NCBI GenBank assembly: GCA_964581795.1 | Contig: CAZOPW010000001.1 | Coordinates: forward strand, 8,359-72,358 | Direction of reading: 5' to 3' | From: an uncultured Thermoplasmatales archaeon | GTDB lineage: Archaea; Thermoplasmatota; E2; DHVEG-1 | Length of the DNA stretch: 64,000 nucleotides | Part shown: one piece after another, positions 5,860-31,097 of the stretch | Numbering within the stretch: the first letter of the stretch is position 1 | How the letters are laid out: each line of letters starts with the position of its first letter | Program-made: the position numbers and the translations under genes | Notes under the pieces: model-generated | Told to the model about the DNA's origin: nothing | Databases searched by the model: none | The model's input: the letters and a program-made list of their open reading frames with translations, nothing else

Positions 5860-7641
5860 TTAAACTTCATTAAATGTTGCAATTTCAGCTCTTTCACCCT
5901 GAAAATCACCTGTTTTTACATTTACTTTAACTGGTATCTCATTTTCTTCCTTTGAAAGAAAAACGGTATGATATGAAGCGTCATCAACACCTTTTAACCG
6001 ATTCATATAATGTTGTTCTACACCTGGTAAGCCAGAGGGCCCAACAAAATCAACCAAGTGTTTCCCAACTAGTTCATCTTCAGAATAGCCCAGCATTTGG
6101 GCAAATCGTTTATTAGCCTTTTTAATGCGCCCACGTTGGAGAACTGCAGCTTCTACAGTTAAAGAATTAAACAAATCATCTTTTTCTAAAATGCCTTCAT
6201 CTTTTTCAGATTCGGGGTTTTCTTGTTCAGGTTGATGTGTGTAGGAGGCGGGTTGTTCTAATTCATGTGTTAAAACTTTGTCATATTGTTCATTGAGAAA
6301 TGCTTCCTGTTCTGAAAGAAATTGCCTTCTTTTTTCAATTTCTTCCTCAAGTTTTTCTAGTTTTTCTCGCCAGGTGATAAATTCCTCAATTTTATGTTTA
6401 AATTCCTTTTTTTCTAGAATCATATCCGCTTCAAGTTGTTCGAGTTTGTGTTTTCTATCTGATAATTGCTGCATCATTTGTTGAAATTCTTCTCGCTTTT
6501 TTTTAATCGCTACACTGTCTCTAATAAATCTGAATTTGGAATTGAAAAAGGTTTTAATTTCATTTCTTTTAAATTGAGCGTAACTTAGTTTTTTCTCAAG
6601 TTTATCATTTTCTTTTTTTAATTTTTTATTTTCTTTTTTAAGTTTCTTTATTGTATCTTTTAAAGAATTTGAAGTTTCTTTTTTCTTTTTATCTTTCTTT
6701 AATCCTTTTTTACCATCTGATAAATTTTCTTTTTTTACTAAACGGGGGAGAAGAAATCGGTTCTTTGATTTTTCTTTATTTTTTGGTAAAAGAGTTGAAA
6801 ATCGATTTTTAATATCTAGGTTTGTTTTCTTCGTTGATTCTTCAGATATTTCATTATTAGATTGATCTAATTCCTCTTTAGTTGATTCTGTTGATTTATC
6901 ACTTGATTTTTCTTTGTTTGTTTTTGATTTTTTTGTTCTTTTTTTAATTTTAATTTTTTTCTTTGTTTTTTTTGCTGAATGGTTGTTGGATGTTTCTTTT
7001 TTCTTCCTGTTTGATGATTTTGAAGTTTTTTTAGGTTTCTCTTTGCTTTCTGTTTTTTCCTTTTTAGATGATTTTATCTTATCGCTTTTTTGGTTTGATG
7101 AATTTTCGATATCCTTTTTGGGATGATCATTTGTGCTTTTTTCTTCTTTTTGCTCCTTTTGAGATGTTTTCTGTTTTCTATCTTTATTTGTTGAAGAGGG
7201 GTTTTTTTTAGATAAAGTCGATTTTTTTTTCGGATTTGATTTCTTTTCTTCAGCTGTATTAACATCATTCAATGGAGTACCAACAAGATTCAATTGAGAT
7301 ACTCTACCATCCTCTTCGTTTTTTATTGGAAAGCCGGTCCAAGAAACCACCATTTTTTCTCCATGTGCAGTTTGAAAAGAAGTATCTATATCTACAGAAT
7401 CAGGACTGAATCGAGCTTGGTTAACAAGTTTTTGAAGTTCTTCTGCTGGTATTTGCTTAGAAAAATAAGTTGAAAATGGAACGTCAAGGACCTCTTTTTT
7501 TGATGACCCTGTGAGTTGCTCTAATGTGTCATTAAATCGTGTGATATTCCCTTTTTTATCGATTCCTACAACTAAAGTTGATCCCTGATGTAATGGATCA
7601 GTGTCACGTATGTAAATAGGCCTCTCCATCTTTCTGTTCAT
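5860..7641 (-). CDS. Dual PAS-domain protein with ~230-aa lysine/serine/glutamate-rich low-complexity linker and coiled-coil segment
   Basis: N-terminal PAS-like region (LVVGIDKKGNITRFNDTLEQLTGSSKKEVLD...). Central KKxK-rich disordered region. Heptad-like LKKENKKLKKENDKLEKKL. C-terminal PAS-like region (GRIKKANKRFAQMLGYSEDELVGKHLVDFV). Divergent from the flaC operon. Confidence 0.6.
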   Translation of the reverse strand: MNRKMERPIYIRDTDPLHQGSTLVVGIDKKGNITRFNDTLEQLTGSSKKEVLDVPFSTYFSKQIPAEELQKLVNQARFSPDSVDIDTSFQTAHGEKMVVSWTGFPIKNEEDGRVSQLNLVGTPLNDVNTAEEKKSNPKKKSTLSKKNPSSTNKDRKQKTSQKEQKEEKSTNDHPKKDIENSSNQKSDKIKSSKKEKTESKEKPKKTSKSSNRKKKETSNNHSAKKTKKKIKIKKRTKKSKTNKEKSSDKSTESTKEELDQSNNEISEESTKKTNLDIKNRFSTLLPKNKEKSKNRFLLPRLVKKENLSDGKKGLKKDKKKKETSNSLKDTIKKLKKENKKLKKENDKLEKKLSYAQFKRNEIKTFFNSKFRFIRDSVAIKKKREEFQQMMQQLSDRKHKLEQLEADMILEKKEFKHKIEEFITWREKLEKLEEEIEKRRQFLSEQEAFLNEQYDKVLTHELEQPASYTHQPEQENPESEKDEGILEKDDLFNSLTVEAAVLQRGRIKKANKRFAQMLGYSEDELVGKHLVDFVGPSGLPGVEQHYMNRLKGVDDASYHTVFLSKEENEIPVKVNVKTGDFQGERAEIATFNEV

Positions 7642-7824: not shown

Positions 7825-8574
7825 ATGGGAAAATCTGATAGTGCATCAGCTGACACTTCTGACAAGGAGAAAGAAGCACCAACTGAAGATGCTTCAAAGG
7901 CTGATAAGAATGCTGAACAACCTGAAGAGGATGTTGAAAATCTTCGTAAAGTGATAAAGCTTAATGATAATGCTAACGAAGATAAGAAATCTGATGAATC
8001 AAAAAAAGACAACGAGCAAGACGAAGATGATGTAGATGGAATTGATGATTTAGTTGAAGAAGCTGAGGAAGAAGGAACTGCAGCTCCTGCATCAACACGA
8101 GAGGAACTTGAACAAAAAAGAGCGATTTTACAACGTATTAAGGATTTTGATTTTCAAATTAAAAAGAACCAACAAGATATTAATGCTGTAGGTGAAAAAA
8201 TAGCAGCATTATCAAAGGATTTGGATGATCTTGTCAGTTTATATGAAATTGTTTCTGAACAAATGAATCCTTTTGTCGGTCTATCTAAGGTTACGAAAAA
8301 AAGATTGGAATCATTGGAGAATATTACAAATGAAGTTGATACGTTAAAAGAAAAACTATCAACAATCGAGGCAGGTGGTTCTATTCAAACTTTAAAACAA
8401 GAACAACCTTCGACCATCGAACCAAGCTTTGAAATGGATTTATCCGATCAGGAGATGGAAAGAATTATTGAACTGTCATTTTCAGAACTAAATCCTGAAT
8501 TAAAGGTTGAAACCACAATTGATGATGCAATTGATGTTTTTATCGAAAATTTAAAAGCCGGGAAGGTAAATTAG
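7825..8574 (+). CDS. flaC: Archaellum accessory protein FlaC-like (acidic coiled-coil)
   Basis: First gene of the flaCDEFGHIJ-type operon. Very acidic N-terminus and coiled-coil region. Synteny with flaD/E, flaF, flaG, flaH, flaI, flaJ. Confidence 0.6.
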   Translation: MGKSDSASADTSDKEKEAPTEDASKADKNAEQPEEDVENLRKVIKLNDNANEDKKSDESKKDNEQDEDDVDGIDDLVEEAEEEGTAAPASTREELEQKRAILQRIKDFDFQIKKNQQDINAVGEKIAALSKDLDDLVSLYEIVSEQMNPFVGLSKVTKKRLESLENITNEVDTLKEKLSTIEAGGSIQTLKQEQPSTIEPSFEMDLSDQEMERIIELSFSELNPELKVETTIDDAIDVFIENLKAGKVN

Positions 8575-8584: not shown

Positions 8585-9475
8585 ATGAGTGAGGATAAAA
8601 AGGAAGGTGGACAGCCTGATGCTACTGATTTTGATTTACAATTAGAATTATCTTCTTTAGTAGCAGACCAAGTTATTCCACAGTCTATTGCTGAGAAGCT
8701 TGAAAAAAAACTTGTTGAAAAACAAGTTGATATTACAAAAGATCAATTATATGCACTTGCTGAGAAAATCCATAATTTAATTCAAACGTATAAAGAAAAA
8801 GGTTCTTTACCTGAACCAACTAGTTCTACAGATTCTGTTAAACCTAATAAACAACAAGATAATGATTCAAATGATGAATCAAAAGATTCATCTTCATCTC
8901 GCTTTGAGGGGGAGATAGATGATGAAACTATTGAAGGATTTATGAGCAAGATTGGACAATTACAACAAAAAATCGATGAATTAGAACAACAAGGTATACA
9001 AGGTGAAGTAACTGATAAAAATCAGCCTTCATCATATAATGATATTAATCTACCGTATAATGAGCCTATTTCGACAAGTCATTTAATTACGGATCCATTG
9101 CAAAATATTCCATCTAATCCAGAGAGTATTATCGTATTAATGAACTGGCTTCAATATCTGGTGAATAGATGTGGTCATGATAATTTAGCTAATGTTTTAG
9201 ATTATTATGTTGAAGTTGATTGGATAACAGACGATGTTAAAATTAGTTTACTCGAATATGCTACAGGTATTACAGAGGGGAATAATTTAAAATCCGATAC
9301 TTCAAATAAAGGTGATGGGAAAAGTTCTAATCTTCATTCTAAAGATCATATTCAATCATATTTATACATTCAACGTCTAAAAGGAAAGAAATTTGAAAAA
9401 CATTTTGTAGAGAGAATTAATGGGGAACTTGCTCGTATTGAAAAAAAGGTTGACACCTATCATCATACACAATAA
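8585..9475 (+). CDS. flaD: Archaellum accessory protein FlaD/FlaE family
   Basis: C-terminal conserved FlaD/E-type domain (IIVLMNWLQYLVNRCGHDNLANVLDYYVEVDWITDDVKISLLEYATGI). Position between flaC and flaF. Confidence 0.65.
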   Translation: MSEDKKEGGQPDATDFDLQLELSSLVADQVIPQSIAEKLEKKLVEKQVDITKDQLYALAEKIHNLIQTYKEKGSLPEPTSSTDSVKPNKQQDNDSNDESKDSSSSRFEGEIDDETIEGFMSKIGQLQQKIDELEQQGIQGEVTDKNQPSSYNDINLPYNEPISTSHLITDPLQNIPSNPESIIVLMNWLQYLVNRCGHDNLANVLDYYVEVDWITDDVKISLLEYATGITEGNNLKSDTSNKGDGKSSNLHSKDHIQSYLYIQRLKGKKFEKHFVERINGELARIEKKVDTYHHTQ

Positions 9476-9566
9476 AAAAAATTTACTAATAATCTAGAAT
9501 TCTCTTCCTATATTGGCGTTGATTTCCTTTAAGGCTAGACTAATAATCAAAAGGATTGGTGAGCAC

Positions 9567-9992
9567 ATGGGGTTTTCAATTTCAGCAACAGCTGCAATTA
9601 TTGGAGTATCATTTCTTATGATACTTGAGATTTCAATGGGAACCCTCTTTCCAGTGATCACTAATATTGATGAAAGTTATGATAACATGAGAGAACGTGC
9701 GATTAATGAACTACAAACAGACATAGAAATACATAATATAAGTGTCCAGGCCAATAGTTCTCTTCATGATCTTTCAATTCAGGTTAAAAATACTGGTTCA
9801 ACAACAATAAAAGTATCGAATGTTGACTTATTGATCAATGGGACGTTATCTTCATTTACCTGTTCTAATCAATATTGGTTTCCTGAAAATACGTACGAAT
9901 TATCAGTTTATGGTTTATCTGGTTCGGGTTTAAAAAAAGTTAAAATAATTACATATAATGGAATTAGTGACTATGATACATATTCAACATAA
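9567..9992 (+). CDS. flaF: Archaellum protein FlaF (N-terminal TM helix + beta-rich domain); ORF track start 9513 likely too far upstream
   Basis: Internal Met at 9567 gives an N-terminus MGFSISATAAIIGV that parallels the MGFSVTGSHVV start of the next gene. Single N-terminal hydrophobic helix. Operon position (F before G in euryarchaeal fla operons). Confidence 0.6.
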   Translation: MGFSISATAAIIGVSFLMILEISMGTLFPVITNIDESYDNMRERAINELQTDIEIHNISVQANSSLHDLSIQVKNTGSTTIKVSNVDLLINGTLSSFTCSNQYWFPENTYELSVYGLSGSGLKKVKIITYNGISDYDTYST

Positions 9993-10049: not shown

Positions 10050-10496
10050 ATGGGATTTAGCGTAACCGGTTCACACGTAGTATTCTTCATTGCTTCAGTT
10101 ATTGCAGCTGGTGCGGTATCTGGAGTTTTTCTTGCAGTGACATTTAATTTGAATACGAGTTTTTCCGAACGCGGAGATCGAGTCCAGGAAGTATTAGATA
10201 CAGAATTTGCCATAATTAACGATCCAGACCATATTCCTACTTCAGGTACCGACTATTTATTTTATATAAAGAATCTTGGGGCAAAACAGTTAGTAACTAC
10301 GGACGAAATTTTTACCATTTTTGTTGATGGAGAAGTTGTTACATCAGATAGTTATAATTTTTCAGTTGAAAAAATCAAACCTGGCGAGATTTCAACGATG
10401 TACATTGATTCAGCAATGATTGGAACAGGTTCACAAACGATTCGTGTTGTTGGACCCCAATCTGTTGTAGATGAATTTATATTCACTACTCCCTAA
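10050..10496 (+). CDS. flaG: Archaellum protein FlaG
   Basis: N-terminal hydrophobic helix (VVFFIASVIAAGAVSGVFLAV), ~150 aa, located between flaF and flaH. Confidence 0.6.
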   Translation: MGFSVTGSHVVFFIASVIAAGAVSGVFLAVTFNLNTSFSERGDRVQEVLDTEFAIINDPDHIPTSGTDYLFYIKNLGAKQLVTTDEIFTIFVDGEVVTSDSYNFSVEKIKPGEISTMYIDSAMIGTGSQTIRVVGPQSVVDEFIFTTP

Positions 10497-10525: not shown

Positions 10526-11248
10526 ATGTCTGACTTAAGTAAAACAAAATCATTAGTCCTTGAGCGGAATGGGGAGAAAGATGGTTTTGCTGAACGATTT
10601 GGTCAAGAAATACCTGATGGATCATTCATTTTTCTAGAGGGAAAAGAGGGTGCTGGAAAAAGTATTTTTTGTCAACGGTTTGGTTATAGTTTTCTAAAGC
10701 AGGGGCATACATGTACATATATTTCAACACAGTATAGTGTGAAAAGTTTTTTGAGGCAAACAGCTTCAGTTGGTTATGATACAAGAAAATTTCTTATGAG
10801 TGGAAAGTTATTTTTTATATCTACTGAAGTTACACTCGCTGAACCAAAACCAAAGCATACATTTTTAGATGCTTTAACCACAACTAAAAAAATTTTTGAT
10901 CCAGAAATCATTTTTATTGATTCCCTTTCAACACTTTTAAATGAAAGTTTGAATAGAAAGAATCTCGTCGATTTAACAAGTTTCTTTAACAGATTGAAAG
11001 GGTCGGGTAAAATTATCATGGTGACAGCTAATCCCAATGATTGGGATAAAGAGATCCACAGTACGTTTCAGATGAACTGTGATATTCATTATCGAGTGGC
11101 TCAAGAAAACATGCCAGGTATTGGATTAGTCTATAAATTTTACATTGAAAAATTCAATGGTGCACGTAATAGATATGAACCTGCAACTACATTTAAAGTT
11201 CAACCGGGAGCGGGACTAACCATTGAAACAAGTGGTGTCGCATTCTAA
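10526..11248 (+). CDS. flaH: Archaellum protein FlaH (RecA/KaiC-like ATP-binding)
   Basis: Walker A GKEGAGKS; ~240 aa; immediately upstream of flaI. Confidence 0.8.
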   Translation: MSDLSKTKSLVLERNGEKDGFAERFGQEIPDGSFIFLEGKEGAGKSIFCQRFGYSFLKQGHTCTYISTQYSVKSFLRQTASVGYDTRKFLMSGKLFFISTEVTLAEPKPKHTFLDALTTTKKIFDPEIIFIDSLSTLLNESLNRKNLVDLTSFFNRLKGSGKIIMVTANPNDWDKEIHSTFQMNCDIHYRVAQENMPGIGLVYKFYIEKFNGARNRYEPATTFKVQPGAGLTIETSGVAF

Positions 11249-11260: not shown

Positions 11261-12892
11261 ATGACTAAGATGGATTCAGATGAGGAAAAACAATTAATTG
11301 AAAATAATCCGCATTTGAAAAAATATATTGATAACATCTCCTTGAAAATGAGTAAACCAACGTTTTATGTAAAAATTCCAAAAGAGGAAAAAGAAAATAA
11401 ATTCCCTAATCTTATTTATCCTACAAAAGGAATAGTATTTATCCATATGTATAGGACTCCAGAAATGGAGCAAATTGAATATCATGCAGTTGAACCAAAA
11501 TTAACTAATGATCAAATAAAAAAGCGTAATGCAGTTCTTGAACGAATGTATGAAAAAGCTCATTTTTATGCAAATATCAAAAGTCCTGACGATTTAAGAA
11601 AAGCTATCAGTACACTACTTGATAATATAACAGTAGTTGATGAATCAGCAACTTCACTTGATGAAGAAAAAAAAAGAGGGAAAATTAGGTTAACAAGTGA
11701 AGATAAAATCGCGATTAAATATGATATAACAAAAGAAATCATTGGTGGAGGACCACTTGAACCATTAATGCGTGATCCCAATATCGAAGATATACATATT
11801 TTAACAGGCGAAGATGTTCATTTAATCCATAAAGTGTTTGATTTAGTCCGAACTAATATTTACATTGATCCGAATTGGGCAAATTCTTTTTCCCAAGATT
11901 TCAGTGAAAAAATTGGAAGTCCCGTTAGTGACGGTGTACCAATCGCTGATGGCACACTTCCAGATGGAAGTCGTGTCAATATTATCCATCCAAATGATGT
12001 TAGTTTAAAAGGACCAAGTATGACGGTTCGAAAATTTAGTGAAACACCGATAAGTATCACGCAAATCATTAATTGGGGGACGATGAGTAGCTACATTGCT
12101 GCATATATTTGGATTGCTGTTCAATATGGAAGAAGTTTTTTTGTGTGTGGTGAAACAGCATCCGGAAAAACAACGACAACAAATGCAGTTATTCCCTTTA
12201 TTCCCCCAGATAGAAAAATTTACTCAGCGGAAAACACTCCTGAAGTTCAAGTGCCTCATCCTGTTTGGCAGCAATTACTTACAAGGACAACTGGGCCAAA
12301 AGAAAGCCATGTTGATTTAAACGATTTATTAAAAGCAGCATTACGATCTCGTCCAAATTATATTATACCTGGTGAAACCAGAGGCATCGAAGGACGAGTA
12401 GTGTTTCAAGCGATGCAAACTGGCCACCCTTGTATCACTACATTTCACGCTGGATCAGTAACAAAAGTTATCCAACGATTTACTGGTGATCCAATTCGTA
12501 TCCCTAAACCTTTCATGGACAATCTTGATTTTGTTATCATTCAGTTAGCAGTTGACAGAAAAGGAAAACGATTACGGCGAGTGATTTCTGTTGATGAAAT
12601 AGAAGGATATAATTCAGCTGTGGATGGTGTGATTACACGGAAAGCGTTCGAATGGAATTCCGCTTCAGATCAACATATGTTTAAGGCAAATCGAAATAGT
12701 TACATTTTAGAAGATCGTATTGCAAAGACTGCAGGATATGAAAATCCAACTGAAATTTATGATGAGCTTGATTTGCGGAAGCGGATTTTAGATCGAATGA
12801 TTGAAGAAAAAATCTTTGATTATTATGAAGTCGTTCAATTTATTTGGACGTATTTTAGAGAAGGCGTTGATGGTCTTCCAATAACCATATAA
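11261..12892 (+). CDS. flaI: Archaellum assembly/motor ATPase FlaI (type II/IV secretion ATPase superfamily), paralog 1
   Basis: Walker A GETASGKTTTTNA; conserved SFFVCGETASGKTT and RSRPNYIIPGETRG regions; 543 aa. Confidence 0.85.
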   Translation: MTKMDSDEEKQLIENNPHLKKYIDNISLKMSKPTFYVKIPKEEKENKFPNLIYPTKGIVFIHMYRTPEMEQIEYHAVEPKLTNDQIKKRNAVLERMYEKAHFYANIKSPDDLRKAISTLLDNITVVDESATSLDEEKKRGKIRLTSEDKIAIKYDITKEIIGGGPLEPLMRDPNIEDIHILTGEDVHLIHKVFDLVRTNIYIDPNWANSFSQDFSEKIGSPVSDGVPIADGTLPDGSRVNIIHPNDVSLKGPSMTVRKFSETPISITQIINWGTMSSYIAAYIWIAVQYGRSFFVCGETASGKTTTTNAVIPFIPPDRKIYSAENTPEVQVPHPVWQQLLTRTTGPKESHVDLNDLLKAALRSRPNYIIPGETRGIEGRVVFQAMQTGHPCITTFHAGSVTKVIQRFTGDPIRIPKPFMDNLDFVIIQLAVDRKGKRLRRVISVDEIEGYNSAVDGVITRKAFEWNSASDQHMFKANRNSYILEDRIAKTAGYENPTEIYDELDLRKRILDRMIEEKIFDYYEVVQFIWTYFREGVDGLPITI

Positions 12893-12921
12893 ATAAAGAA
12901 ATATTACAAATATGCGATGGG

Positions 12922-14598
12922 GTGGACTTGTTGGCTGATGACGACAAAATGACTGAGGAAGAAATTCAAGAATTGATTGATAAACATCCTCATCTTCAAA
13001 CATATTTAAAAAATATTGAAGTAAAGATGAAACGGCCTGAGTTTTTCAAAAAAATTCCGAAATCCAAAGAAAGTGAAGAATTTCCAAATCTAATTTACCC
13101 AACAAAAGGATCAGTTTTTATTCACATATACCGGCTTCCTGAAATGGATGAACGTATTTATCAGTCTATTGAACCTGAACTTGATGATGAAGCGGAAAAA
13201 AAATTCAAAGATATGTTGAAGATAATTGTAAAAAAAGCACCAGAGAAAAAAAGTGCTGTTTCTGACGATGAATTAAAAGAAATTTTTATTGAACTTATGA
13301 ATGAAATCATCGAGATTGATGAAAACGCATACTCTTATGAACCATTAGAAAAGAAAGGGTTGTTTAACAAACAGAAAATGGCAACAAAGATTAAAGCTAC
13401 TTCACCGCAAAAAGAAGCAATGAAATATTCTCTTATTAAGGAACAAATTGGTGGGGGACCACTAGAACCCTTTATGCGAGATATCTACTTGGAAGATATT
13501 CATATTATTGCTGGCGAAAATGTGCACGCAATTCATAAAGTATTTGATATGATTAAAACAAATATTTTGATTCCAAAAGAAGAATCATTTGTTTTTGCTC
13601 GGAAATTAAGTGAAAAGATGGGTGCTGCAGTAAGTGAAGCTCAACCAATTGTAGATGCTACGATGCCAGATGGCAGTCGAGGAAATTTAATTTATCCTGA
13701 ATCAGTAAGTATTAAAGGACCAAGTATTACTATTCGTAAATTTGCCGAAACCCCGATAAGTATCACGCAAATCATAAATTGGGGAACATTAAGTAGTGGA
13801 ATTGGAGCATATCTTTGGCTTGCATTACAATACGGGAGAAGTTTTTTTGTTTGTGGGGAAACCGCATCGGGAAAAACAACGACAACTAATGCAGTCATCC
13901 CATTCATACCTCCAGATAAAAAAGTTTACACTGCAGAAAATACTCCAGAACTTCATGTTCCTCATACTGTATGGCAGCAGTTATTAACTCGAACCGCAGA
14001 TACAGAAGAGGGGAGTGTTGACTTATTCGATTTATTAAAAGCAGCATTACGATCTCGTCCCGACTATATTATCCCCGGTGAAACTCGTGGTGCTGAGGGA
14101 AGTGTTGTTTTTCAAGCGATGCAAACTGGCCACCCTTGTATCACTACATTTCACGCTGGATCAGTAACAAAAGTTATCCAACGATTTACCGGCGATCCAA
14201 TCAATGTTCCAAAATCATTTATGGACAACCTTGATTTTGTGTTAATTCAAATGGCTGTGGAACGGAAAGGTCAACGTCTTCGTCGAGTACTTTCAGTTGA
14301 TGAAATCGAGGGATATAACAAAGCAGTCGATGGAGTAATGTCTCGGACTGCATTTGAATGGAAATCTGCTGAAGATCAACACCTGTTTCGAGCGAATAGA
14401 AATAGTTACATGCTTGAAGAACGCATTGCAAAGACTGCCGGTTATGAGGATCCCGCTGAAATTTATGAGGAATATGAATTACGCAAACACATCCTTGATA
14501 GAATGGTGGAAGAACAAATTTTTGATTACTACGAGGTATGTCAATTCATTTGGACTTTTTATCGAGAAGGGATTGAAGCTTTACCCATTTCGATTTAA
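12922..14598 (+). CDS. flaI: Second tandem FlaI-family ATPase paralog (558 aa)
   Basis: Same architecture and Walker A (GETASGKTTTTNA). About 60% identity to paralog 1 with a divergent N-terminal third. Contains an 80-bp stretch 100% identical to paralog 1 (14110..14189 vs 12404..12483). Confidence 0.8.
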   Translation: MDLLADDDKMTEEEIQELIDKHPHLQTYLKNIEVKMKRPEFFKKIPKSKESEEFPNLIYPTKGSVFIHIYRLPEMDERIYQSIEPELDDEAEKKFKDMLKIIVKKAPEKKSAVSDDELKEIFIELMNEIIEIDENAYSYEPLEKKGLFNKQKMATKIKATSPQKEAMKYSLIKEQIGGGPLEPFMRDIYLEDIHIIAGENVHAIHKVFDMIKTNILIPKEESFVFARKLSEKMGAAVSEAQPIVDATMPDGSRGNLIYPESVSIKGPSITIRKFAETPISITQIINWGTLSSGIGAYLWLALQYGRSFFVCGETASGKTTTTNAVIPFIPPDKKVYTAENTPELHVPHTVWQQLLTRTADTEEGSVDLFDLLKAALRSRPDYIIPGETRGAEGSVVFQAMQTGHPCITTFHAGSVTKVIQRFTGDPINVPKSFMDNLDFVLIQMAVERKGQRLRRVLSVDEIEGYNKAVDGVMSRTAFEWKSAEDQHLFRANRNSYMLEERIAKTAGYEDPAEIYEEYELRKHILDRMVEEQIFDYYEVCQFIWTFYREGIEALPISI

Positions 14599-14617: not shown

Positions 14618-16372
14618 ATGGCGAAAAAAAAGGAAAAAAGAAACAAAAAAAAACATGAGTTTCTTGATGAACTCAAGGTTTCTTACCGTTTAATAGAAAA
14701 TAAAAAAAAGTTTTATACGACAGTATTACTTCCTTTCATATTCCTTGGAATATTAGTTTTTACTCTTCCTTTTTTGCTCCCTGTTTTTCTTCCAGTACCC
14801 GTTTCTTTTCATCCTGCTACATTTATTATTGGCGGTATTGTCCCTATTATTCTTGGTATTTTCTATCCTTATATTACATTTAAAAATAAAGAAACAGAAA
14901 TTGATAGTAACATGCATTTTTTTATCACACACCTCCGAGTTCTAGCAATTTCAGATCTTTCTTTAAAAGATATTCTAAACGTACTTGGTGGAAAAAAGGT
15001 ATATCAAAGCTTAGGTGAAGAAATCAAAAAAGTATCAATCCTCTCTACTCAATGGCGTTATCCAATGGCTAGTACACTTCATTTCGTTGCACTTAGGACA
15101 CCAAGTAAAATTCTAAAGGATTTTTTAGATCGATTCTCACAGAGTTTAGATAGTGGAGTTGAACATCGAGAATTCGTTGAAACTGAACAAGAAGCAGTTA
15201 TGCAAGATTATAAAACAATGTATGAAACAAGCAATGAAAACATCGTTATTTTAAACGAAGTGTATGTTAGTATGCTCATTGCGATTATTTTTGTAATGAG
15301 TTTTGGTATTGTATTACCAATAATTATGGGCGCTGAAAGTATGACAACGTATACGTATCTTTCTTCGTTCATGCTAATTGTTGCTGAGGGATTATTATTA
15401 TATTTATTAAAATCAATCATTCCTGAAGATTATATCTGGCATCAATCTGGTGAAAAAAGTGAATTGCAAAAAAAGATGACTAAATGGTTTACAAATTCAA
15501 TATTGCTTTCAATCATAATAGGTTCAGCTTTATTATACGCTAATTTTTCATTAAATCTGCCTGTGATTGCAGATCTCCCATTGGAAATACTTATTGCATT
15601 TGCGTTTTCTCCCTTGTTATTAGTAGGAGTGAAAACTATAATTGAGGAGGAAAATATATCAAGGAAAGAAAAAAATTTTCTTGGATTTTTAACAGGACTC
15701 GGATCTATTGCAACCATGAAAGGAGGGAAAGTGACCGAATCGGTTTACTATTTAAGTAGAAAGGATTACGGCATATTATCTAAATATATTCGCAGTTTAT
15801 ATAGACGTTTACGAACTCGAATTGATGATAATGCAGCATGGCAATGGTTTGGAGTTGATACAAATAGTAATTTCATTCAACGATCGAGTGAAATGTTTCG
15901 TGAAGCAACTTATGCAGCCGCAAATCCAACCAAGGTTACAAAAATGATCGCTGAAAACATGAGGAAAATCCTTGATCTTCGTAAAAAAAAGTTTTCCATT
16001 GTAAACACATCTATTGCATTATTCGGCGGTATCACTTTTGGTATTTCTTTTTCAATTTACGTTTCACTTGTCATTAGCAGACATTTAAATGATATCGTTT
16101 TAGAAACAGGAGACCCTTTTAGTCAACTAGACGGTATTAACATTGGAACACTCCTCTATACTGTTCCTCCTGAAACATATAATTTTATAGTATTAATCAT
16201 TTTTTTAGTGTTAATTATTCACTCTTTTATACTTGCTTACACCATAAAAGTAATCCGAGGAAGTCATACATATCTCACTTTTTTGTATTTTGTTCCATTC
16301 GTATGGATTATTTCTTTAACAAGTTGGGTTGTAGATATCTTTATTAGAGGAATGCTTACAGGCACACCTTAA
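14618..16372 (+). CDS. flaJ: Archaellum polytopic membrane platform protein FlaJ (TadC/GspF-like)
   Basis: 584 aa, multiple TM helices with large cytoplasmic loops; last gene of the operon after flaI. Confidence 0.8.
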   Translation: MAKKKEKRNKKKHEFLDELKVSYRLIENKKKFYTTVLLPFIFLGILVFTLPFLLPVFLPVPVSFHPATFIIGGIVPIILGIFYPYITFKNKETEIDSNMHFFITHLRVLAISDLSLKDILNVLGGKKVYQSLGEEIKKVSILSTQWRYPMASTLHFVALRTPSKILKDFLDRFSQSLDSGVEHREFVETEQEAVMQDYKTMYETSNENIVILNEVYVSMLIAIIFVMSFGIVLPIIMGAESMTTYTYLSSFMLIVAEGLLLYLLKSIIPEDYIWHQSGEKSELQKKMTKWFTNSILLSIIIGSALLYANFSLNLPVIADLPLEILIAFAFSPLLLVGVKTIIEEENISRKEKNFLGFLTGLGSIATMKGGKVTESVYYLSRKDYGILSKYIRSLYRRLRTRIDDNAAWQWFGVDTNSNFIQRSSEMFREATYAAANPTKVTKMIAENMRKILDLRKKKFSIVNTSIALFGGITFGISFSIYVSLVISRHLNDIVLETGDPFSQLDGINIGTLLYTVPPETYNFIVLIIFLVLIIHSFILAYTIKVIRGSHTYLTFLYFVPFVWIISLTSWVVDIFIRGMLTGTP

Positions 16373-16424: not shown

Positions 16425-17081
16425 CTATAAATCAATAATTGTTTCTGTATAAGTTGAAGGGGTTGTGAAATCAAAAATTGCTGATATTCCTTGTTCAGGA
16501 ACGATTTTTCCCGAAACTGAGGATCTTGGTGCTATCCCTTCAAAACAAGCAGTTGTATTAACCAAAATACCAATCAGATCATTTCGATTTATGGAAGGAG
16601 TATCAACAGTGCAACTATTATCATTATCTCGAATTACTAAAACACCAAACTCCGTATTGCTTAAATTGCTCGTATTCAATGTTTGAAACAATCCATTTGT
16701 CACAGTTGTAGAAAAACTCTCATTATCAAATAAAAGAATTGGCATTTTTTGAGAATCAGATATTTGAAGACGTGCTTCACTTAAATCAATTGCTTCAGAT
16801 CCTGCAGTTGTTTTAACAAAAAAACAAAGCTGGGCGATCGATTCATTTGAAACATAACCACTCACATGAGTTAATCTCAGACCAGATGAAATATCTTTTA
16901 TTGTTTCCTGGCTTGTCTGCAATGCTTGTTGTTGCATAGAGTCCATTGTTTGAAATACAACAGATGCAGCAACTCCCGCGGAAATAATCATAGCAATAAA
17001 AATAATTAATGATCCAATTCCAATTGAAGCATGATCTTCAGTAGAGAACACACCCCCAGAGTATACTATTACCTTTCTCAC
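16425..17081 (-). CDS. flaB: Archaellin (FlaB family), 218 aa, divergent paralog
   Basis: Class III signal peptide / archaellin N-terminus HASIGIGSLIIFIAMIISAGVAASVVF. Confidence 0.85.
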   Translation of the reverse strand: MRKVIVYSGGVFSTEDHASIGIGSLIIFIAMIISAGVAASVVFQTMDSMQQQALQTSQETIKDISSGLRLTHVSGYVSNESIAQLCFFVKTTAGSEAIDLSEARLQISDSQKMPILLFDNESFSTTVTNGLFQTLNTSNLSNTEFGVLVIRDNDNSCTVDTPSINRNDLIGILVNTTACFEGIAPRSSVSGKIVPEQGISAIFDFTTPSTYTETIIDL

Positions 17082-17273
17082 CTCCTAGCAATGATGTGAG
17101 TGGTTCAATTAACTTATTTTAAGAACCCATCCAATGAGAAGGTAATACAGTAAGCAGGTTATAAATCTATGGTTAAAACAAAAAATAGAACAATAAAAAA
17201 AAATGAAAAAAATCAAAAGGAGGGATGTTTTTTCCAATCTCTTAAAAAGAGAGTGGAAGAAATGACATCTCTC

Positions 17274-18018
17274 TATTATTGTAGTTTATAGATTTGATCA
17301 ACGTATGTCATTGGTGTAGTAAACGAAATCACACCAGGTGACCCAATCTCAGGAATCACACGACCAAACACATCTGTTCGTGGTGGAAGTTGTGCATCAA
17401 ACAAATATGAAGTATTTGTACAAATATACAAAATCGCTTTATCCCCACGATTCAACACGGGATTACTCGCAGTAATCGAACTATCTTCATCCTGCAACAC
17501 ACCAATCGCAAACGTTTCAGCACCAGTCGTATTCCAATGATCTTCACCAATATCAAACATATCACCAGTCACATCACCAACAAAGGAAATATTGCCATCA
17601 CCAGTATCTGTCGCATTAGTATAGTTATAACGTACCAATGATTTTGTAGCACCGTTACTAATCAAGATATAAGTATTATTCAGATCGATATCATCCGAAC
17701 CTGGTCGAACCTTCACCACAACAGCAAGCCGAGACAAATTCTCAAGCTCAGTACTATTGGATTCATTTCGAACCCATCCAGAAACCTCAAAAACAGAAAT
17801 ACCACTACTCACCTCTTTCCGAGTTTTCTGGCCAGTACTCAACGCCTGAATCTGCACGGTATTGCTTGTAGAAACCAAAACCGATGCAGCAATACCTGCA
17901 ACCAAAACCATTGCAATAAACACAATCATTGCACCAATACCAATAGCAGCTTCATGATCTCGAATAAAATTCTTAACAAACATTCTCATTTCTATTCACC
18001 TCCTTATTGCAACTCCAT
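17274..18018. repeat. 745-bp perfect direct repeat, copy 1 (covers flaB-237 gene plus junction to the upstream archaellin gene)
   Basis: Nucleotide-identical to 19933..20677 by direct comparison of both ends and of the encoded proteins. Confidence 0.85.
17276..17989 (-). CDS. flaB: Archaellin (FlaB family), 237 aa, copy 1 of an identical pair
   Basis: AAIGIGAMIVFIAMVLVAGIAASVLV N-terminus. Protein 100% identical to the 19935..20648 ORF. Confidence 0.9.
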   Translation of the reverse strand: MRMFVKNFIRDHEAAIGIGAMIVFIAMVLVAGIAASVLVSTSNTVQIQALSTGQKTRKEVSSGISVFEVSGWVRNESNSTELENLSRLAVVVKVRPGSDDIDLNNTYILISNGATKSLVRYNYTNATDTGDGNISFVGDVTGDMFDIGEDHWNTTGAETFAIGVLQDEDSSITASNPVLNRGDKAILYICTNTSYLFDAQLPPRTDVFGRVIPEIGSPGVISFTTPMTYVDQIYKLQ

Positions 18019-18699
18019 TACATCATCAATATAAGAAGCGGGGGTTGTAAAACCAACAATTCCTGGTGAACCTTCCTCACAGACGACAATACCAGATACA
18101 TCAGTTCTTGGAAGTAATCCACCAAATACTTCGTCTGTATTTATTCCTAAAATCACGTGATCTCCAAAATTAATAATTGGATTGTCTCTTGTGCATGAAT
18201 CATCAGCATCATTTAAAACAATTACACTGAATGAATTTGCACTACCATATGTGCCACTGCCAAATACATCTCCGTTTACATTCGAAGAGTTAGTGTATGT
18301 ATCATCTGATCTCTCGTATGCTAATATATATTTCTCTGATGAATCTGATATTTCAATTATTGTTTCATGTAAATCAATATCTGGAGATCCTGCTTTTGAA
18401 GTTATCTCTATAGCCATTTTATCAATTGAACCAGAAGTATTATGACCTTCAATAGCTTCAACTTTCAATCCACTTGCTACTTCTGCGATAGTCTCCTGAC
18501 CAGTTTTTAACGCCTGCATTTCCAACCGCGTACTTGTTTGGATAAGTACAGATGCGGCAATACCTGCCACAAGAACCATGGCAATAAAAATAATCATTGC
18601 ACCTATCCCAATTGCTGCGGTATCTATCTTTAAATTCTTTCCTAATTTTCTACATCCCATCATCGGAACATCCCTCCTAAAAGTTACGTCTTGTAACAA
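18004..18699 (-). CDS. flaB: Archaellin (FlaB family), 231 aa
   Basis: AAIGIGAMIIFIAMVLVAGIAASVLI N-terminus; close paralog of 20663..21319. Confidence 0.9.
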   Translation of the reverse strand: MLQDVTFRRDVPMMGCRKLGKNLKIDTAAIGIGAMIIFIAMVLVAGIAASVLIQTSTRLEMQALKTGQETIAEVASGLKVEAIEGHNTSGSIDKMAIEITSKAGSPDIDLHETIIEISDSSEKYILAYERSDDTYTNSSNVNGDVFGSGTYGSANSFSVIVLNDADDSCTRDNPIINFGDHVILGINTDEVFGGLLPRTDVSGIVVCEEGSPGIVGFTTPASYIDDVMELQ

Positions 18700-18775
18700 T
18701 TAGGTTGTTTCTATCAACAATAAAACAAACGGTCTTATTATACCTTTTTTTTAGATAGCAATACAAGTGTTAAGG

Positions 18776-18799
18776 CAAATGCATATGCATATGAATATG
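18776..18799. promoter_or_regulatory. Tandem hexamer array (CAAATG CATATG CATATG AATATG) abutting TATA box of the 18699 archaellin promoter
   Basis: Same 6-bp periodic CANNTG-type repeat family. TATA-like GGTATAATAAG immediately downstream (gene strand). AGGAGGG SD before the ATG. Confidence 0.5.
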
Positions 18800-18858
18800 T
18801 TAAAAATCAAGAAATGAATTTTGTCTTGTTATAAAAAGGGTAAATATAGAGTCAATTG

Positions 18859-19843
18859 TGTAGTACGAATATTATTTCGTTTTTTCTTTTTCATATTTTC
18901 AACTCCATAAAATATCCTAAAAGACAACTTGGATCTAATTTTCTCATCAATGCCTCTGCAGGGTTCTCTCCGATCTCTAACCAGAGAGATCCATGTAACC
19001 GATGGTTATACCATTGAAGGAATTCTTCAATGGTGTCAAAACGCCATCGGTGCTTATCATATTCAAACCAGAATCGTTCCACTTTCCCATTGGTTTGAGG
19101 ATTATTCCTGCGAGAGGGAACAAAGTTGATATCATTTTGTTCCAGGAATTCCTGAAATTGTGATTTGCTCTTCGGATGATTTGAGTAAAACTGGGTACCT
19201 CGATCCGTGTTCACATCCTTGATGAATGCATGAAACAGATGACTGTGATCAATCACCTTTTGAAAAGTATCAATACTATGCCTTGCAGTTGCTTCAGGAT
19301 ACTCTGCTCCATGAAAGATGTATCGTGATGCATCATCCATCCAGACAATGGCATGTGGATGATCCACTGAGGTACGATGCCAGTCACCATGGATCAATGA
19401 AAAACTATGATCACGTTCATACCGGCGACGTTTCCGTTTCTTCTGTTTATTCGGATTTGGAATCGTTCTTTTCTTCTTCAGGAAATACTTATGGATCTTA
19501 TGATGTGGAATATGATGCCCTCTTCGTTTCAATTCATGAAAAAGAAGACGAGCTCCGAACCGTGTTTCCTACCAACTTGATCAATGATCTCCTTTTCCGT
19601 TGGAGTAAGTGGTTTTCCTCTTGGTCGTCTCCTCGGGTTCAAACAGGGAGGTTTTCCTGTTTTGCTTATATTCCTTTACTAATTGCTGAATCCTCCGGAT
19701 GCTTACTTCATAATGTCGAGCTAATCGTTCTGTGGTCCAATCTTTATCTTCCACTGCATGTTTGCAGATGTTCCTTATTTTCTTGTCTGTAAGCTTTGTC
19801 ACATCAGCATGTAATCTAAAGCGAAATAATTTTCATACTCTAC
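18859..19843 (-). mobile_element. IS481-like insertion sequence (~985 bp) inserted between the duplicated archaellin units
   Basis: rve/DDE-type transposase ORFs. Imperfect terminal inverted repeats: TGTAGTACGAATATTATTTCG at 18859..18879 versus the reverse complement of GCGAAATAATTTTCATACTCTACA at 19821..19843. Confidence 0.6.
18891..19802 (-). pseudogene. IS481/IS3-like DDE (rve) transposase with N-terminal HTH, interrupted by two in-frame stops
   Basis: HTH segment (TTERLARHYEVSIRRIQQLVKEY). rve motifs TDRGTQF and NPQTNGKVERF. The two ORF pieces are in the same frame, separated by TGA (19581..19583) and TAG (19569..19571). Confidence 0.6.
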
Positions 19844-19932
19844 AAAATATAGAATCAATAAAAAAAGATTTAAAGAAATAAAAAAGTGAAGGGTTCCAAA
19901 AGGATTGGTTTCGGAGTGCCCTTTTTTCAATT

Positions 19933-20677
19933 TATTATTGTAGTTTATAGATTTGATCAACGTATGTCATTGGTGTAGTAAACGAAATCACACCAGGTGA
20001 CCCAATCTCAGGAATCACACGACCAAACACATCTGTTCGTGGTGGAAGTTGTGCATCAAACAAATATGAAGTATTTGTACAAATATACAAAATCGCTTTA
20101 TCCCCACGATTCAACACGGGATTACTCGCAGTAATCGAACTATCTTCATCCTGCAACACACCAATCGCAAACGTTTCAGCACCAGTCGTATTCCAATGAT
20201 CTTCACCAATATCAAACATATCACCAGTCACATCACCAACAAAGGAAATATTGCCATCACCAGTATCTGTCGCATTAGTATAGTTATAACGTACCAATGA
20301 TTTTGTAGCACCGTTACTAATCAAGATATAAGTATTATTCAGATCGATATCATCCGAACCTGGTCGAACCTTCACCACAACAGCAAGCCGAGACAAATTC
20401 TCAAGCTCAGTACTATTGGATTCATTTCGAACCCATCCAGAAACCTCAAAAACAGAAATACCACTACTCACCTCTTTCCGAGTTTTCTGGCCAGTACTCA
20501 ACGCCTGAATCTGCACGGTATTGCTTGTAGAAACCAAAACCGATGCAGCAATACCTGCAACCAAAACCATTGCAATAAACACAATCATTGCACCAATACC
20601 AATAGCAGCTTCATGATCTCGAATAAAATTCTTAACAAACATTCTCATTTCTATTCACCTCCTTATTGCAACTCCAT
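19933..20677. repeat. 745-bp perfect direct repeat, copy 2
   Basis: Identical to 17274..18018; offset 2659 bp. Confidence 0.85.
19935..20648 (-). CDS. flaB: Archaellin (FlaB family), 237 aa, copy 2 of the identical pair
   Basis: Protein identical to the 17276..17989 ORF. Confidence 0.9.
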   Translation of the reverse strand: MRMFVKNFIRDHEAAIGIGAMIVFIAMVLVAGIAASVLVSTSNTVQIQALSTGQKTRKEVSSGISVFEVSGWVRNESNSTELENLSRLAVVVKVRPGSDDIDLNNTYILISNGATKSLVRYNYTNATDTGDGNISFVGDVTGDMFDIGEDHWNTTGAETFAIGVLQDEDSSITASNPVLNRGDKAILYICTNTSYLFDAQLPPRTDVFGRVIPEIGSPGVISFTTPMTYVDQIYKLQ

Positions 20678-21319
20678 CCAAGCATCAATGTATGATGCAG
20701 GAGTAGTAAAACCGACAATTCCTGCTGCACCTTCTTCACATATAACTAATCCAGATACATCAGTTCTTGGTAATAAACCACTGTTTACTGTAAAGACTGA
20801 ACTTGTATCAATGCCTAAAATAACGTGGTCTCCATCATTTATTACAGGTGTTGTACTTGTGCATGATTCATCAGCATCTTGCAAAACTGTAATTCCAAAC
20901 GCAGTTGAGGATCCCCAAGCTCCATTAGTAGATAGGTCTCCATCAATCGATGTTGAGTTTTTATAATCAGATCCATAACCGAGTACATATTTGTTTGTTG
21001 AATCGGATATTTCAATTATTGCCTGTTCTAAATCTATATCTGGAGCGCCTGCTTTTGGTCTAATTTCAATTGCCATTTTGGTAATTTTACCTGAAGCATT
21101 GTATCCTTCAACACCTTCAACAGTAATACCTGAGGATACTTCAGCGATTGTTTCTTGACCCGTTTTTAATGCTTGCATCTCTAAACGTGTACTTGTTTGC
21201 ACCAGCACCGATGCAGCAATTCCAGCAACAAGAACCATGGCGATAAAAATTATCATGGCTCCGATACCAATTGCTGCCATATTTTTTCTATTTGTAAGGT
21301 ATTTAGTCTTTCGTCCCAT
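20663..21319 (-). CDS. flaB: Archaellin (FlaB family), 218 aa, first gene of the array
   Basis: AAIGIGAMIIFIAMVLVAGIAASVLV N-terminus. Strong AGGAGGGGTAAT SD 12 nt upstream. TATA and hexamer array further upstream. Confidence 0.9.
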   Translation of the reverse strand: MGRKTKYLTNRKNMAAIGIGAMIIFIAMVLVAGIAASVLVQTSTRLEMQALKTGQETIAEVSSGITVEGVEGYNASGKITKMAIEIRPKAGAPDIDLEQAIIEISDSTNKYVLGYGSDYKNSTSIDGDLSTNGAWGSSTAFGITVLQDADESCTSTTPVINDGDHVILGIDTSSVFTVNSGLLPRTDVSGLVICEEGAAGIVGFTTPASYIDAWMELQ

Positions 21320-26481: not shown

Positions 26482-26499
26482 CTTTTCATTCTTTTAAAG

Positions 26500-31096: not shown

Positions 31097-31097
31097 C

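Follow-up and report, generated by a model that had tools for sequence, protein, structure and literature searches.

Two motor ATPase genes of the ArlI/FlaI family stand in tandem in the archaellum operon of an uncultured Thermoplasmatota archaeon, between one arlH and one arlJ. According to reviews, the archaellum has ArlI as its sole ATPase, and the first-pass annotation of this DNA, which had called a single FlaI canonical, agrees with the literature on this point; no earlier report of a two-arlI archaellum operon was found in that literature. We regard as probable an account in which arlI was duplicated in tandem in an ancestor of the clade, the copies have exchanged sequence by gene conversion, and both would serve one chemotaxis-controlled archaellum motor whose tasks they split. 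The archaellum is a known machine, and the tandem-arlI operon is a novel form of it. In canonical archaella, such as those of S. acidocaldarius, P. furiosus, H. volcanii and, within the Thermoplasmatales, O. meridianum, there is one ArlI/FlaI, whereas here there are two in tandem, conserved across a clade; the gene set, the arl1 order with separate arlB genes, the ATPase family, and the single ArlH and ArlJ are the same.

Two FlaI-family genes in one archaellum operon

The window, by which we mean the whole 64,000-nucleotide stretch that was analyzed, carries the operon on its forward strand in the order arlC, D/E, F, G, H, I1, I2, J, with one arlH, one arlJ and one arlCDE set. The first gene of the accessory operon encodes an ArlC/FlaC-like coiled-coil protein (7825 to 8574; Pfam FlaC_arch, 40.1 bits against a cut-off of 27.8), followed by an ArlD/E (FlaD/E) switch-complex protein (8585 to 9475; Pfam Arch_fla_DE, 88 bits) and two stator proteins, one ArlF-like (9513 to 9992; best NCBIfam model ArlF at 84 bits, below the 110-bit cut-off; Pfam Arch_flagellin) and one ArlG-like (10050 to 10496; best NCBIfam model ArlG at 84.3 bits, likewise below its cut-off). 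The single ArlH/FlaH, the KaiC-like partner of the ATPase, lies at 10526 to 11248 (NCBIfam ArlH, 177.9 bits, below the 215-bit cut-off; Pfam KaiC), and the single membrane platform protein, ArlJ/FlaJ, at 14618 to 16372 (NCBIfam ArlJ, 477.7 bits, below the 550-bit cut-off; Pfam T2SSF). Because F precedes G, the cluster is of the arl1 type. The archaeon belongs to a clade that includes Marine Benthic Group D (Thermoprofundales). The single-copy rule for arlI, arlH, arlJ, arlF and arlG is broken here by arlI, which is present twice.

Five archaellin (ArlB/FlaB) genes on the reverse strand (16425 to 21319; Pfam Arch_flagellin, 97 to 102 bits) converge on the operon, with open reading frames at 16425 to 17081, 17276 to 17989, 18004 to 18699, 19935 to 20648, and 20663 to 21319; an rve-integrase frame (18891 to 19532; Pfam rve) interrupts the array. 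Farther along, Pfam matches mark out a reverse-strand chemotaxis cluster (25636 to 40685) with CheR, CheC-like, CheA, CheB, CheF and CheW-REC proteins, inside which a Cache-HAMP-MCP receptor is encoded on the forward strand (35152 to 37641). The che cluster indicates that the archaellum motor is taxis-controlled.

The two FlaI reading frames of 543 and 558 amino acids, adjacent between flaH and flaJ, were found as first annotated, both on the forward strand. ArlI1/FlaI1 (motor ATPase paralog 1; 11261 to 12892) starts with ATG and has 543 amino acids. ArlI2/FlaI2 (paralog 2; 12922 to 14598) has 558 if read from the GTG; its true start lies somewhere in 12922 to 12949, where a GTG, two TTG and one ATG are all in frame, and the called lengths of homologs run from 555 to 558 amino acids. 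Against the equivalog model of the ArlI/FlaI family (NCBIfam NF058587, arCOG01817; cut-off, 550 bits), FlaI1 scored 665.9 bits and FlaI2 674.2 bits, and the next-best model for either, BasE, reached only 153 to 174 bits against its own cut-off of 1000. The structure of S. acidocaldarius FlaI (PDB 4II7) matched FlaI1 at E = 1e-109 over residues 26 to 530 and FlaI2 at E = 9e-109. Both proteins contain GETASGKTTTTNA, and GETASGKTT, ENTPE, IIPGETRG and TTFHAG occur in both and align to the S. acidocaldarius protein. Indeed, the Walker A GxxxxGKT, the E-x-TPE Asp box, the Walker B PGE, and the TTFHAG His box are kept in 42 of the 42 clade sequences that cover these motifs, which bears out the earlier impression that no inactivating substitution is evident. 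These scores and motifs identify both predicted products as FlaI-family proteins with intact catalytic motifs. In the main clade, FlaI2 carries derived residues beside the catalytic motifs (GGTACGKT, AEGTPE and DGSRGN), and altered or regulatory ATPase behavior could follow from them. Between orthologs, dN/dS is 0.03 to 0.06 for each of FlaI1 and FlaI2 and dN is nearly equal (for example, 0.066 versus 0.069), values that indicate equally strong purifying selection on the two copies.

The paralogs are less alike than had first been estimated. An overall nucleotide identity of about 75 to 80% had been claimed; the measured value is 69% (1124/1629), with 73 to 82% reached only in the C-terminal two-thirds. 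The proteins are 65% identical over their full length, but this figure averages very different regions, with 27 to 43% at alignment codons 76 to 165 (27 to 47% for the N-terminal domains) and 73 to 97% in the ATPase core.

An old duplication kept in tandem

Related loci (L001 to L026 and the Marine Benthic Group D contig AOSI01000157) were compared with the genome of the window, W, whose arlI copies are called W_1 and W_2. A tandem pair between arlH and arlJ is found in all 19 of the related loci with two full-length copies, namely, 18 of L001 to L026 and the single-cell contig AOSI01000157, and six further loci, which either run off a contig or have a frame break in one copy, are compatible with it. 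Copy 1 of L021 and of L025 has frame breaks, which may reflect pseudogenes instead of faulty assembly. No single-FlaI locus was seen among the related loci examined, which represent about 25 genomes sampled via FlaI1-derived peptide patterns, a sampling that clade members having lost one copy may have escaped. In every locus, the FlaI1 ortholog occupies position 1 and the FlaI2 ortholog position 2, arlH is present once, and arlJ follows arlI2. The paralogs had been described as long diverged, and this holds: the pair occurs in distant relatives whose FlaI1 is merely 66 to 70% identical to that of the window, the best match of copy 1 is always FlaI1 and that of copy 2 always FlaI2, and synonymous sites are saturated.

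It is hardly conceivable that the tandem pair or its identical block is an artifact of a metagenome-assembled genome (MAG). Repeats do disturb assemblies, and two contigs of a single MAG end exactly here. However, more than 20 independent assemblies, as well as a single-cell genome, show the arrangement, each with its own sequence and tract boundaries, and the arlI copies of the window differ in 31% of their bases.

The phylogeny proposed in the first-pass annotation was carried out by neighbor joining. FlaI1 and FlaI2 together formed one clade with 100% bootstrap support against 22 outgroup FlaIs, which are representative FlaI sequences, several of them named FlaI by their source or lying in arl operons. 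As regards a grouping with pilus ATPases, this FlaI-only tree is an indirect test; the NCBIfam scores complement it and speak against such a grouping for either copy. Within the clade, FlaI1 was monophyletic (86% bootstrap). FlaI2 was not recovered as monophyletic (26%), probably owing to conversion and rate effects, and this result weakens the picture of two clean orthologous groups. The same three subclades nevertheless appear in each of the FlaI1 and FlaI2 subtrees, and at ten residues each group is fixed for a state of its own. The classical single arlH-arlI-arlJ arrangement is seen in both of the nearest outgroups that were examined. Sister groups within a single clade, together with nearest outgroups that have one FlaI, point to one old duplication within the clade and away from a borrowed pilus ATPase. 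On this evidence, arlI/flaI was duplicated once, in tandem, in the clade ancestor, with both copies kept adjacent since.

One option raised at the outset was that one paralog serves another pilus-like filament; akin to it is the option that one copy was acquired horizontally and only happens to sit in the archaellum operon. Two-ATPase pilus loci are known in the Thermoplasmatota (CdiPE1/E2 of Cuniculiplasma, and Aciduliprofundum). We reject both options as very improbable here: both copies exceed the FlaI equivalog cut-off while pilus and bindosome models stay far below theirs, the copies are each other's closest relatives, sister at 100% bootstrap, and in every locus the two sit between arlH and arlJ.

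Short-tract conversion between the copies

The two genes share an exactly identical tract of 80 bp, at 12404 to 12483 in arlI1 and 14110 to 14189 in arlI2 (both forward strand), which is the maximal exact match between them and encodes FQAMQTGHPCITTFHAGSVTKVIQRFT, from just past Walker B to the His box. The identity reported earlier was confirmed base for base, as was a shorter 23-nt block at 12047 to 12069 and 13753 to 13775, and another exact block, of 33 nt, was found at 12322 to 12354 and 14028 to 14060; the latter is possibly an older or shorter conversion remnant. The tract is identical at 80/80 positions, against 73 to 81% in flanking windows of 90 nt. Elsewhere in the C-terminal domain, identical residues other than Met and Trp use the same codon in 108 of 210 cases, which gives a chance of about 6e-8 for 25 consecutive shared codons (10^-8.6 when calculated from operon codon usage). 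A Sawyer-type permutation of the polymorphic sites gave p of at most 1e-4. The low chance value and the permutation together place the identity beyond chance.

In the tract, the two copies of W, W_1 and W_2, disagree at 1/81 positions, and either differs from any other genome's copies at 10 to 16; the paralog pairs of L002, L004 and L020 likewise differ from each other at only 2 to 4 of 81. When W is compared with L002, 13 sites in the tract agree within a genome and differ between genomes and none shows agreement of orthologs, against 13 and 140, respectively, in the N-terminal domain. Other genomes have tracts of their own. In L001 to L004, these lie at columns 274 to 291, 393 to 423, about 430 to 465 (L002 and L004), and 533 to 546, and in L017 and L023, they lie in the N-terminal domain, at columns 21 to 34, 72 to 83, and 174 to 191. 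No tract of at least 26 nt was present in the 12 main-clade genomes. The original proposal of ongoing conversion is thus upheld, with tract paralogs grouping by genome, and the pattern indicates repeated short-tract gene conversion between the adjacent arlI copies, with different tracts in different genomes. The 80-bp block is the latest such event in the W genome. Repeated conversion accounts in part for the likeness of the C-terminal ATPase domains, and divergence resides mostly in the N-terminal domain.

Extreme protein conservation with codon bias, or a functional element in the nucleotides themselves (an RNA structure or a binding site, for example), might produce an identical block with no recombination at all. 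The tract indeed encodes the pair's longest run of identical residues, it lies in the catalytic core, and the genome is AT rich (33 to 36% GC at the locus). However, every difference in the tract between related genomes is synonymous, which leaves no conserved nucleotide element, and a search of the window against Rfam gave no matches. Main-clade paralogs provide a control for codon bias: they are only 3 or 4 residues apart in the tract peptide yet differ at 12 to 23 of 81 bases. With the chance value given above, these observations leave this explanation next to no probability.

A possible cause for a conversion hotspot is offered by inteins. In distant FlaI homologs, inteins are inserted between the Q and T of FQAMQ/TGHP, corresponding to 12418/12419 of the window, inside the tract; a homing endonuclease cutting the empty site would be followed by repair from the neighboring paralog. 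In six of the seven genomes with a long exact block, the block is at this site or a few codons from it, and in W, L001, L004 and L023, the site is inside the block. Against this, no allele with an intein was seen in the clade (the 120 closest homologs are all 540 to 561 amino acids long), and none is present in arlI1 or arlI2, which have normal lengths and align end to end. The site is off-center, with one end of the tract just 15 nt away, and the P-loop, where further inteins of distant FlaI homologs are inserted, has no long identical block. Overlap is expected in any case, because inteins favor the most conserved motifs, where conversion is easiest and least harmful. We consider endonuclease-triggered conversion improbable, if somewhat less so than the other alternatives above.

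Short-tract conversion and concerted evolution of duplicated genes are familiar from tufA and tufB of Salmonella and from multicopy archaellin and flagellin genes. The arlI pair resembles these in its patchy near-identity between diverged paralogs and in grouping by genome within tracts, and differs in that conversion is confined to short islands (26 to 92 bp) and the genes as a whole are not homogenized. The locus offers a clean archaeal case of mosaic concerted evolution. The contigs L019 and L026, from one MAG, break exactly at the arlI region, and the conversion mosaic explains such breaks.

Two ATPases in a proposed shared motor

How a single ATPase can build the archaellar filament and also rotate it both ways is a central question about this machine. 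Presumably, ArlI1 and ArlI2 act in the same motor, on the single ArlH and the single ArlJ, and would split or specialize the jobs of a single ArlI, which builds the filament and rotates it both ways. Published models place the N-terminal protrusions of ArlI toward the membrane and ArlH on the opposite face of a hexamer that has 2-fold asymmetry; because of this geometry, we propose that the diverged N-terminal domains may provide two different membrane-facing surfaces while the homogenized C-terminal domains may provide one common ring and ArlH-binding surface.

A mixed ring of ArlI1 and ArlI2 seems to us the likeliest arrangement, at somewhat short of an even chance. The hints are indirect: the genes share an operon, are strictly retained together and evolve at equal rates, and their C-terminal domains are homogenized. 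Heterohexamers have also been proposed for the secretion-ATPase superfamily. A more specific version, advanced tentatively, is that the Thermoprofundales-related motor is an obligate ArlI1/ArlI2 heterohexamer in which the asymmetry of two open and four closed subunits, dynamic in the homohexamer of a single ArlI, would be hard-wired, the N-terminal domains would divide assembly from rotation or one direction from the other, and conversion would keep the ring and the ArlH interface compatible; if true, no archaellum before it has had two ATPases.

The alternative is that separate ArlI1 and ArlI2 homohexamers alternate on the same ArlJ/ArlH platform, one for assembly and one for rotation or one per direction, much as bacterial PilB and PilT swap at the base of the type IV pilus. 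Several observations favor it: assembly and rotation by the single ArlI of S. acidocaldarius are separable via its first 29 residues, the N-terminal domain is where ArlI1 and ArlI2 diverge most strongly, a che cluster with CheF implies a direction-switching motor, and dedicated ATPases arose by duplication in bacterial type IV filament systems. On the other side, the genes lie only 29 to 56 bp apart in one operon, so that the proteins are presumably made together, and repeated conversion holds the ring-forming C-terminal domains alike. Paralogs derived from homomers also usually stay able to coassemble. On balance, we judge separate rings less likely than a mixed one.

The lineage, whose members are abundant in sediments and which has had two intact ArlI copies since before its radiation, is a natural experiment in division of labor. 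The lasting differences between the copies, mainly the N-terminal domain and the ten fixed paralog-specific sites, point to the parts that can be specialized, and the parts homogenized by conversion point to what must remain common. Since ArlI1 and ArlI2 can be expressed recombinantly with a single ArlH and ArlJ, the question can be tested without cultivation.

Three further known systems come close. Cuniculiplasma divulgatum has a Thermoplasmatota type IV filament operon with two paralogous assembly-type ATPases, CdiPE1 and CdiPE2, beside the platform gene (ISME J 2025); there, however, the filament is an Aap-like adhesion pilus rather than an archaellum, the ATPases are homologs of AapE, and that paper takes archaella to have a single ATPase. 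The bacterial type IVa ATPases PilB, PilT and PilU are also duplicated hexameric members of the secretion superfamily, specialized as motors on one platform protein, but PilT and PilU power retraction, are missing the N-terminal domains of PilB and diverged anciently, whereas the proteins described here are full-length FlaIs, 65% identical and still exchanging sequence. Finally, more than one FlaI per genome is found in Methanosarcina (fla2A and fla2B) and in M. burtonii (fla1 and fla2). In those archaea, the entire cluster is doubled, each FlaI having its own FlaH, FlaJ and archaellins, whereas here arlI alone is doubled, within one operon.

Two motor ATPases in one archaellum operon

The first ATPase gene, arlI1, occupies 11261..12892 on the forward strand and encodes a 543-aa protein, FlaI1, from an ATG start. 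The second, arlI2, follows on the same strand at 12922..14598 and encodes the 558-aa FlaI2 from a GTG, although this start is uncertain and may be an in-frame GTG, TTG, or ATG anywhere between 12922 and 12949. In BLASTP, the two proteins align end to end with 65% identity and 81% positives, with identity of 27 to 43% over codons 76 to 165 and 73 to 97% in the ATPase core. The first-pass annotation had described adjacent genes sharing an exact 80-bp block, and this description stands, but its overall nucleotide identity of 75 to 80% was too high; a codon alignment gives 69% (1124/1629). The NCBIfam FlaI equivalog model, with a cut-off of 550 bits, scored FlaI1 at 665.9 and FlaI2 at 674.2 bits, and all other secretion-ATPase models fell far under their own cut-offs for both proteins. 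Both copies also matched the Sulfolobus acidocaldarius FlaI (PDB 4II7/4IHQ) with E values of about 1e-109, and both align with it at the Walker A motif (GETASGKTT), the Asp box (ENTPE), the Walker B motif with its catalytic glutamate (IIPGETRG), and the His box (TTFHAG).

Profile matches identified the surrounding genes as an arl1-type operon. On the forward strand, genes for FlaC-like (from 7825), FlaD/E (from 8585), ArlF-like (from 9513), ArlG-like (from 10050), and ArlH (from 10526) proteins lead directly into the two ArlI genes, which are followed by ArlJ (from 14618). Five archaellin genes on the minus strand (16425 to 21319) converge on this operon. The archaellum genes are adjoined by a complete chemotaxis cluster (25636-40685) encoding CheR, a CheC-like protein, CheA, CheB with two receiver domains, CheF, CheW-REC, and a double-Cache/HAMP methyl-accepting chemotaxis protein, which implies a switchable motor. 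Judged by its gene content, the locus encodes a swimming apparatus under taxis control that has a single ArlH, a single ArlJ, and two ArlI proteins. A Thermoprofundales genome paper placed FlaI, FlaJ, and FlaB on PlasFlow-predicted "plasmids" in 19 genomes (PMC9585477). Here, the archaellum locus lies amid chromosomal-type housekeeping genes, including those for DNA topoisomerase, the ATP-pyrophosphatase subunit of GMP synthase, phosphoribosyl pyrophosphate (PRPP) synthase, and an IF-2B family protein, and the plasmid prediction may thus be a composition artifact.

Makarova et al. (2016) reported FlaI as single copy in all archaellated archaea, and both Beeby (2019) and a 2022 review word it as the sole archaellar ATPase. 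A 2025 study of Thermoplasmatales likewise describes one multifunctional ATPase as being encoded by every archaella operon known, and it regards a pilus operon with two ATPases as an outlier. Previously described duplications are of whole clusters in Methanosarcina, or of flaG, flaD, and archaellin genes, whereas here it is arlI that is present in tandem. Thermoprofundales genome papers, including PMC9585477, either only touch on FlaI, FlaJ, and FlaB or leave motility out, and the tandem is not discussed in them. No report of tandem arlI genes was found in the literature searched, an absence that is no proof that none exists; within that literature, the pair appears to be unreported. The component proteins are typical of known families, and it is their arrangement that makes a new form of archaellum.

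A GTDB scan using one genome per species yielded 26 loci, all from uncultured Thermoplasmatota metagenome-assembled genomes (MAGs), in a sample that was seeded with FlaI1 peptides and may miss one-copy members of the clade. Searches of these loci by tblastn with the window proteins detected arlH, FlaI1-like and FlaI2-like genes, and arlJ in each locus whose length allowed a judgment. The arrangement was kept even where FlaI1 was just 66 to 70% identical to that of the window, with FlaI1 always the best scorer for the first gene and FlaI2 for the second. [quoted passage not shown] The tandem arrangement was therefore already present, unremarked, in public data, and it extends to bona fide MBG-D/Thermoprofundales; matches to the MBG-D homologs suggest that the window itself belongs to the order Thermoprofundales. 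An assembly artifact is ruled out by the recurrence of the arrangement in independent assemblies and in the single-cell genome. Two of the loci (L021, 8743-10252, and L025, 5468-7094) have a frame break or small deletion in FlaI1, with copy 2 intact, and these could be sequencing or assembly errors or real pseudogenes.

Origin and functional state of the two copies

A bootstrapped neighbor-joining tree combined 44 sequences of the clade with 22 intein-free representative FlaI proteins from an exhaustive HMMER search. FlaI1 and FlaI2 together formed one clade, with bootstrap values of 100% for the full alignment, 99% for the N-terminal domain, and 100% for the C-terminal domain. Within it, FlaI1 was monophyletic (86%), and monophyly of FlaI2 was not recovered, its sequences being unresolved or paraphyletic (26%). 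The same three sub-clades appeared in both halves of the tree, and the two paralog groups are fixed for different residues at ten alignment columns. Most of the nearest single-copy FlaI sequences are metagenome proteins, and the two nearest outgroup representatives that we looked up have a classical arlH-arlI-arlJ operon with one ATPase. The simplest history would be one tandem duplication in the ancestor of the clade followed by co-divergence, and such an origin excludes a recruited pilus ATPase as one of the copies. The first-pass annotation had proposed checking the grouping of each copy against pilus ATPases; both pass the FlaI equivalog cut-off, and the copies are sister in a tree whose outgroups were FlaI proteins. 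NCBIfam scores and phylogeny together rule out that either is a pilus ATPase or was horizontally acquired.

Comparison of orthologs gave dN/dS values of 0.03 to 0.06 for each copy, with synonymous sites saturated (dS > 1.2) even among "close" genomes, and dN was nearly equal between the copies (0.066 and 0.069 for the window's genome against L002, a related locus). The catalytic motifs are kept in all sequences that cover them, which speaks against an inactivated copy and agrees with the earlier observation that no inactivating substitutions were evident. There are derived residues beside the motifs. In the main clade (copy 2 of L005-L025), which makes up most of the clade, FlaI2 has GGTACGKT versus GETASGKT at Walker A, AEGTPE versus AENTPE at the Asp box, and DGSRGN; both copies in the window's sub-clade have the canonical Walker A and Asp box residues. 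FlaI1, in turn, has a derived EGR at the position of EGN in the outgroups and in S. acidocaldarius. Neither copy resembles a pseudo-enzyme, and both have, on these alignments, gained lineage-fixed changes near the active site.

Gene conversion between the paralogs

The maximal exact match of the pair is the 80-bp tract at 12404-12483 and 14110-14189, and further exact blocks of 33 nt (12322-12354 and 14028-14060) and 23 nt (12047-12069 and 13753-13775) were found. When the tract was compared as 27 codons, the two copies in the window differed at 1/81 bases, and each differed at 10 to 16/81 bases, all synonymous, from either copy in any other genome. Paralog pairs within L002, L004, and L020 differed at 2 to 4/81. 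Between the window and L002, there were 13 tract positions at which paralogs agree within a genome and the genomes differ and 0 at which orthologs agree and paralogs differ; for the N-terminal domain, the corresponding counts were 13 and 140. Other loci have identical blocks of their own: 92 bases in L004 (columns 432-462), 65 and 47 nt in L002, 52 nt in L001 (columns 274-291), and blocks within the N-terminal domain in L017 and L023.

No exact block of at least 26 nt was found between paralogs in the twelve main-clade genomes. Their paralogs have almost the same tract peptide, yet 12 to 23/81 bases differ, which argues that the identity does not come from codon bias or protein constraint; the cross-genome comparison and these main-clade controls together rule out that explanation. 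The tract identity had an estimated chance probability of about 6e-8, and a permutation test gave p <= 1e-4. An RNA or DNA element as the cause is likewise ruled out, as the window has no Rfam match and the tract has no nucleotide conservation between genomes. In the main clade, the tract peptide is paralog specific, with V/I/K in FlaI1 and C/M/Q in FlaI2, versus C/I/K in both copies of the window's sub-clade, which shows transfer in both directions. Gene conversion between tandem paralogs is a well-known process. The first-pass reading, of ongoing gene conversion between long-diverged paralogs, is borne out and broadened to an old duplication, conserved in the clade, with conversion that recurs and differs by lineage. 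At the level of sequence, the ArlI pair is a clade-wide, intact, and co-retained feature of one operon, with diverged N-terminal domains and C-terminal domains partly homogenized by recombination.

In the MAG CAZWQV01, the assembly breaks inside the arlI pair; one locus (L019) ends at FlaI1 residue 437, the other (L026) starts at residue ~399/414, and about 117 nt are common to the two ends. Such a break fits the effect expected of an identical paralogous tract confusing an assembler.

The two proteins share their longest stretch of identical residues in the region beginning FQAMQTGHP. Conversion would be concentrated here because homology-dependent repair is easiest, and its products neutral, where identity is longest. 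We also considered intein homing as the trigger. Distant FlaI genes (P0121, P0124-P0126, P0131, and P0145 among the homologs from the protein search) carry inteins at FQAMQ/TGHP and, in the P-loop, at GK/T and GE/TASGKT; the Methanosalsum natronophilum FlaI is one intein-bearing example, and some proteins hold two inteins (1271 aa). These sites map to window positions ~12418/12419 (FQAMQ/TGHP) and ~12150-12170, and the former lies within the region homologous to the tract. However, no intein was found in the clade homologs, and overlap with the tract is expected from motif conservation, making homing a very improbable trigger.

Possible roles of the pair and neighboring genes

ArlI is regarded as the only ATP-hydrolyzing component of the archaellum, and rotation, but not assembly, requires its first 29 residues (2022 review). 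In crystals, the ArlI hexamer shows 2-fold symmetry, two protomers being open and four closed, and in situ the N-terminal protrusions face the membrane, with ArlH on the opposite face (2022 review). We propose that the two paralogs act in one and the same motor. The homogenized C-terminal domains would keep one ring-forming, ArlH-binding surface, and the two N-terminal domains would present different surfaces toward the membrane, ArlJ, or the switch complex. A mixed ArlI1/ArlI2 ring is a possible, tentatively held form of such a motor; alternation of ArlI1 and ArlI2 homohexamers seems somewhat less likely.

Divergent from the archaellum operon, a minus-strand gene (5860-7641) encodes a protein with PAS domains at either end and, between them, a low-complexity stretch of several hundred residues with an extremely high content of Lys, Ser, and Glu; this protein could be a regulator. 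A 1284-aa STT3/AglB-type oligosaccharyltransferase with C-terminal CarboxypepD_reg/SdrD_B domains (53280-57134, minus strand) may be relevant to archaellin N-glycosylation. Within the archaellin array, a 745-bp exact duplicate (17274-18018 and 19933-20677) spans a whole 237-aa archaellin gene (17276-17989 and 19935-20648, minus strand). The adjoining archaellin genes (18004-18699 and 20663-21319) are just ~77% identical, and an integrase-core (rve) open reading frame lies between the two copies of the duplicate (18891-19532). The duplicate could reflect a very recent duplication or conversion in the five-gene array, possibly mediated by an insertion element.
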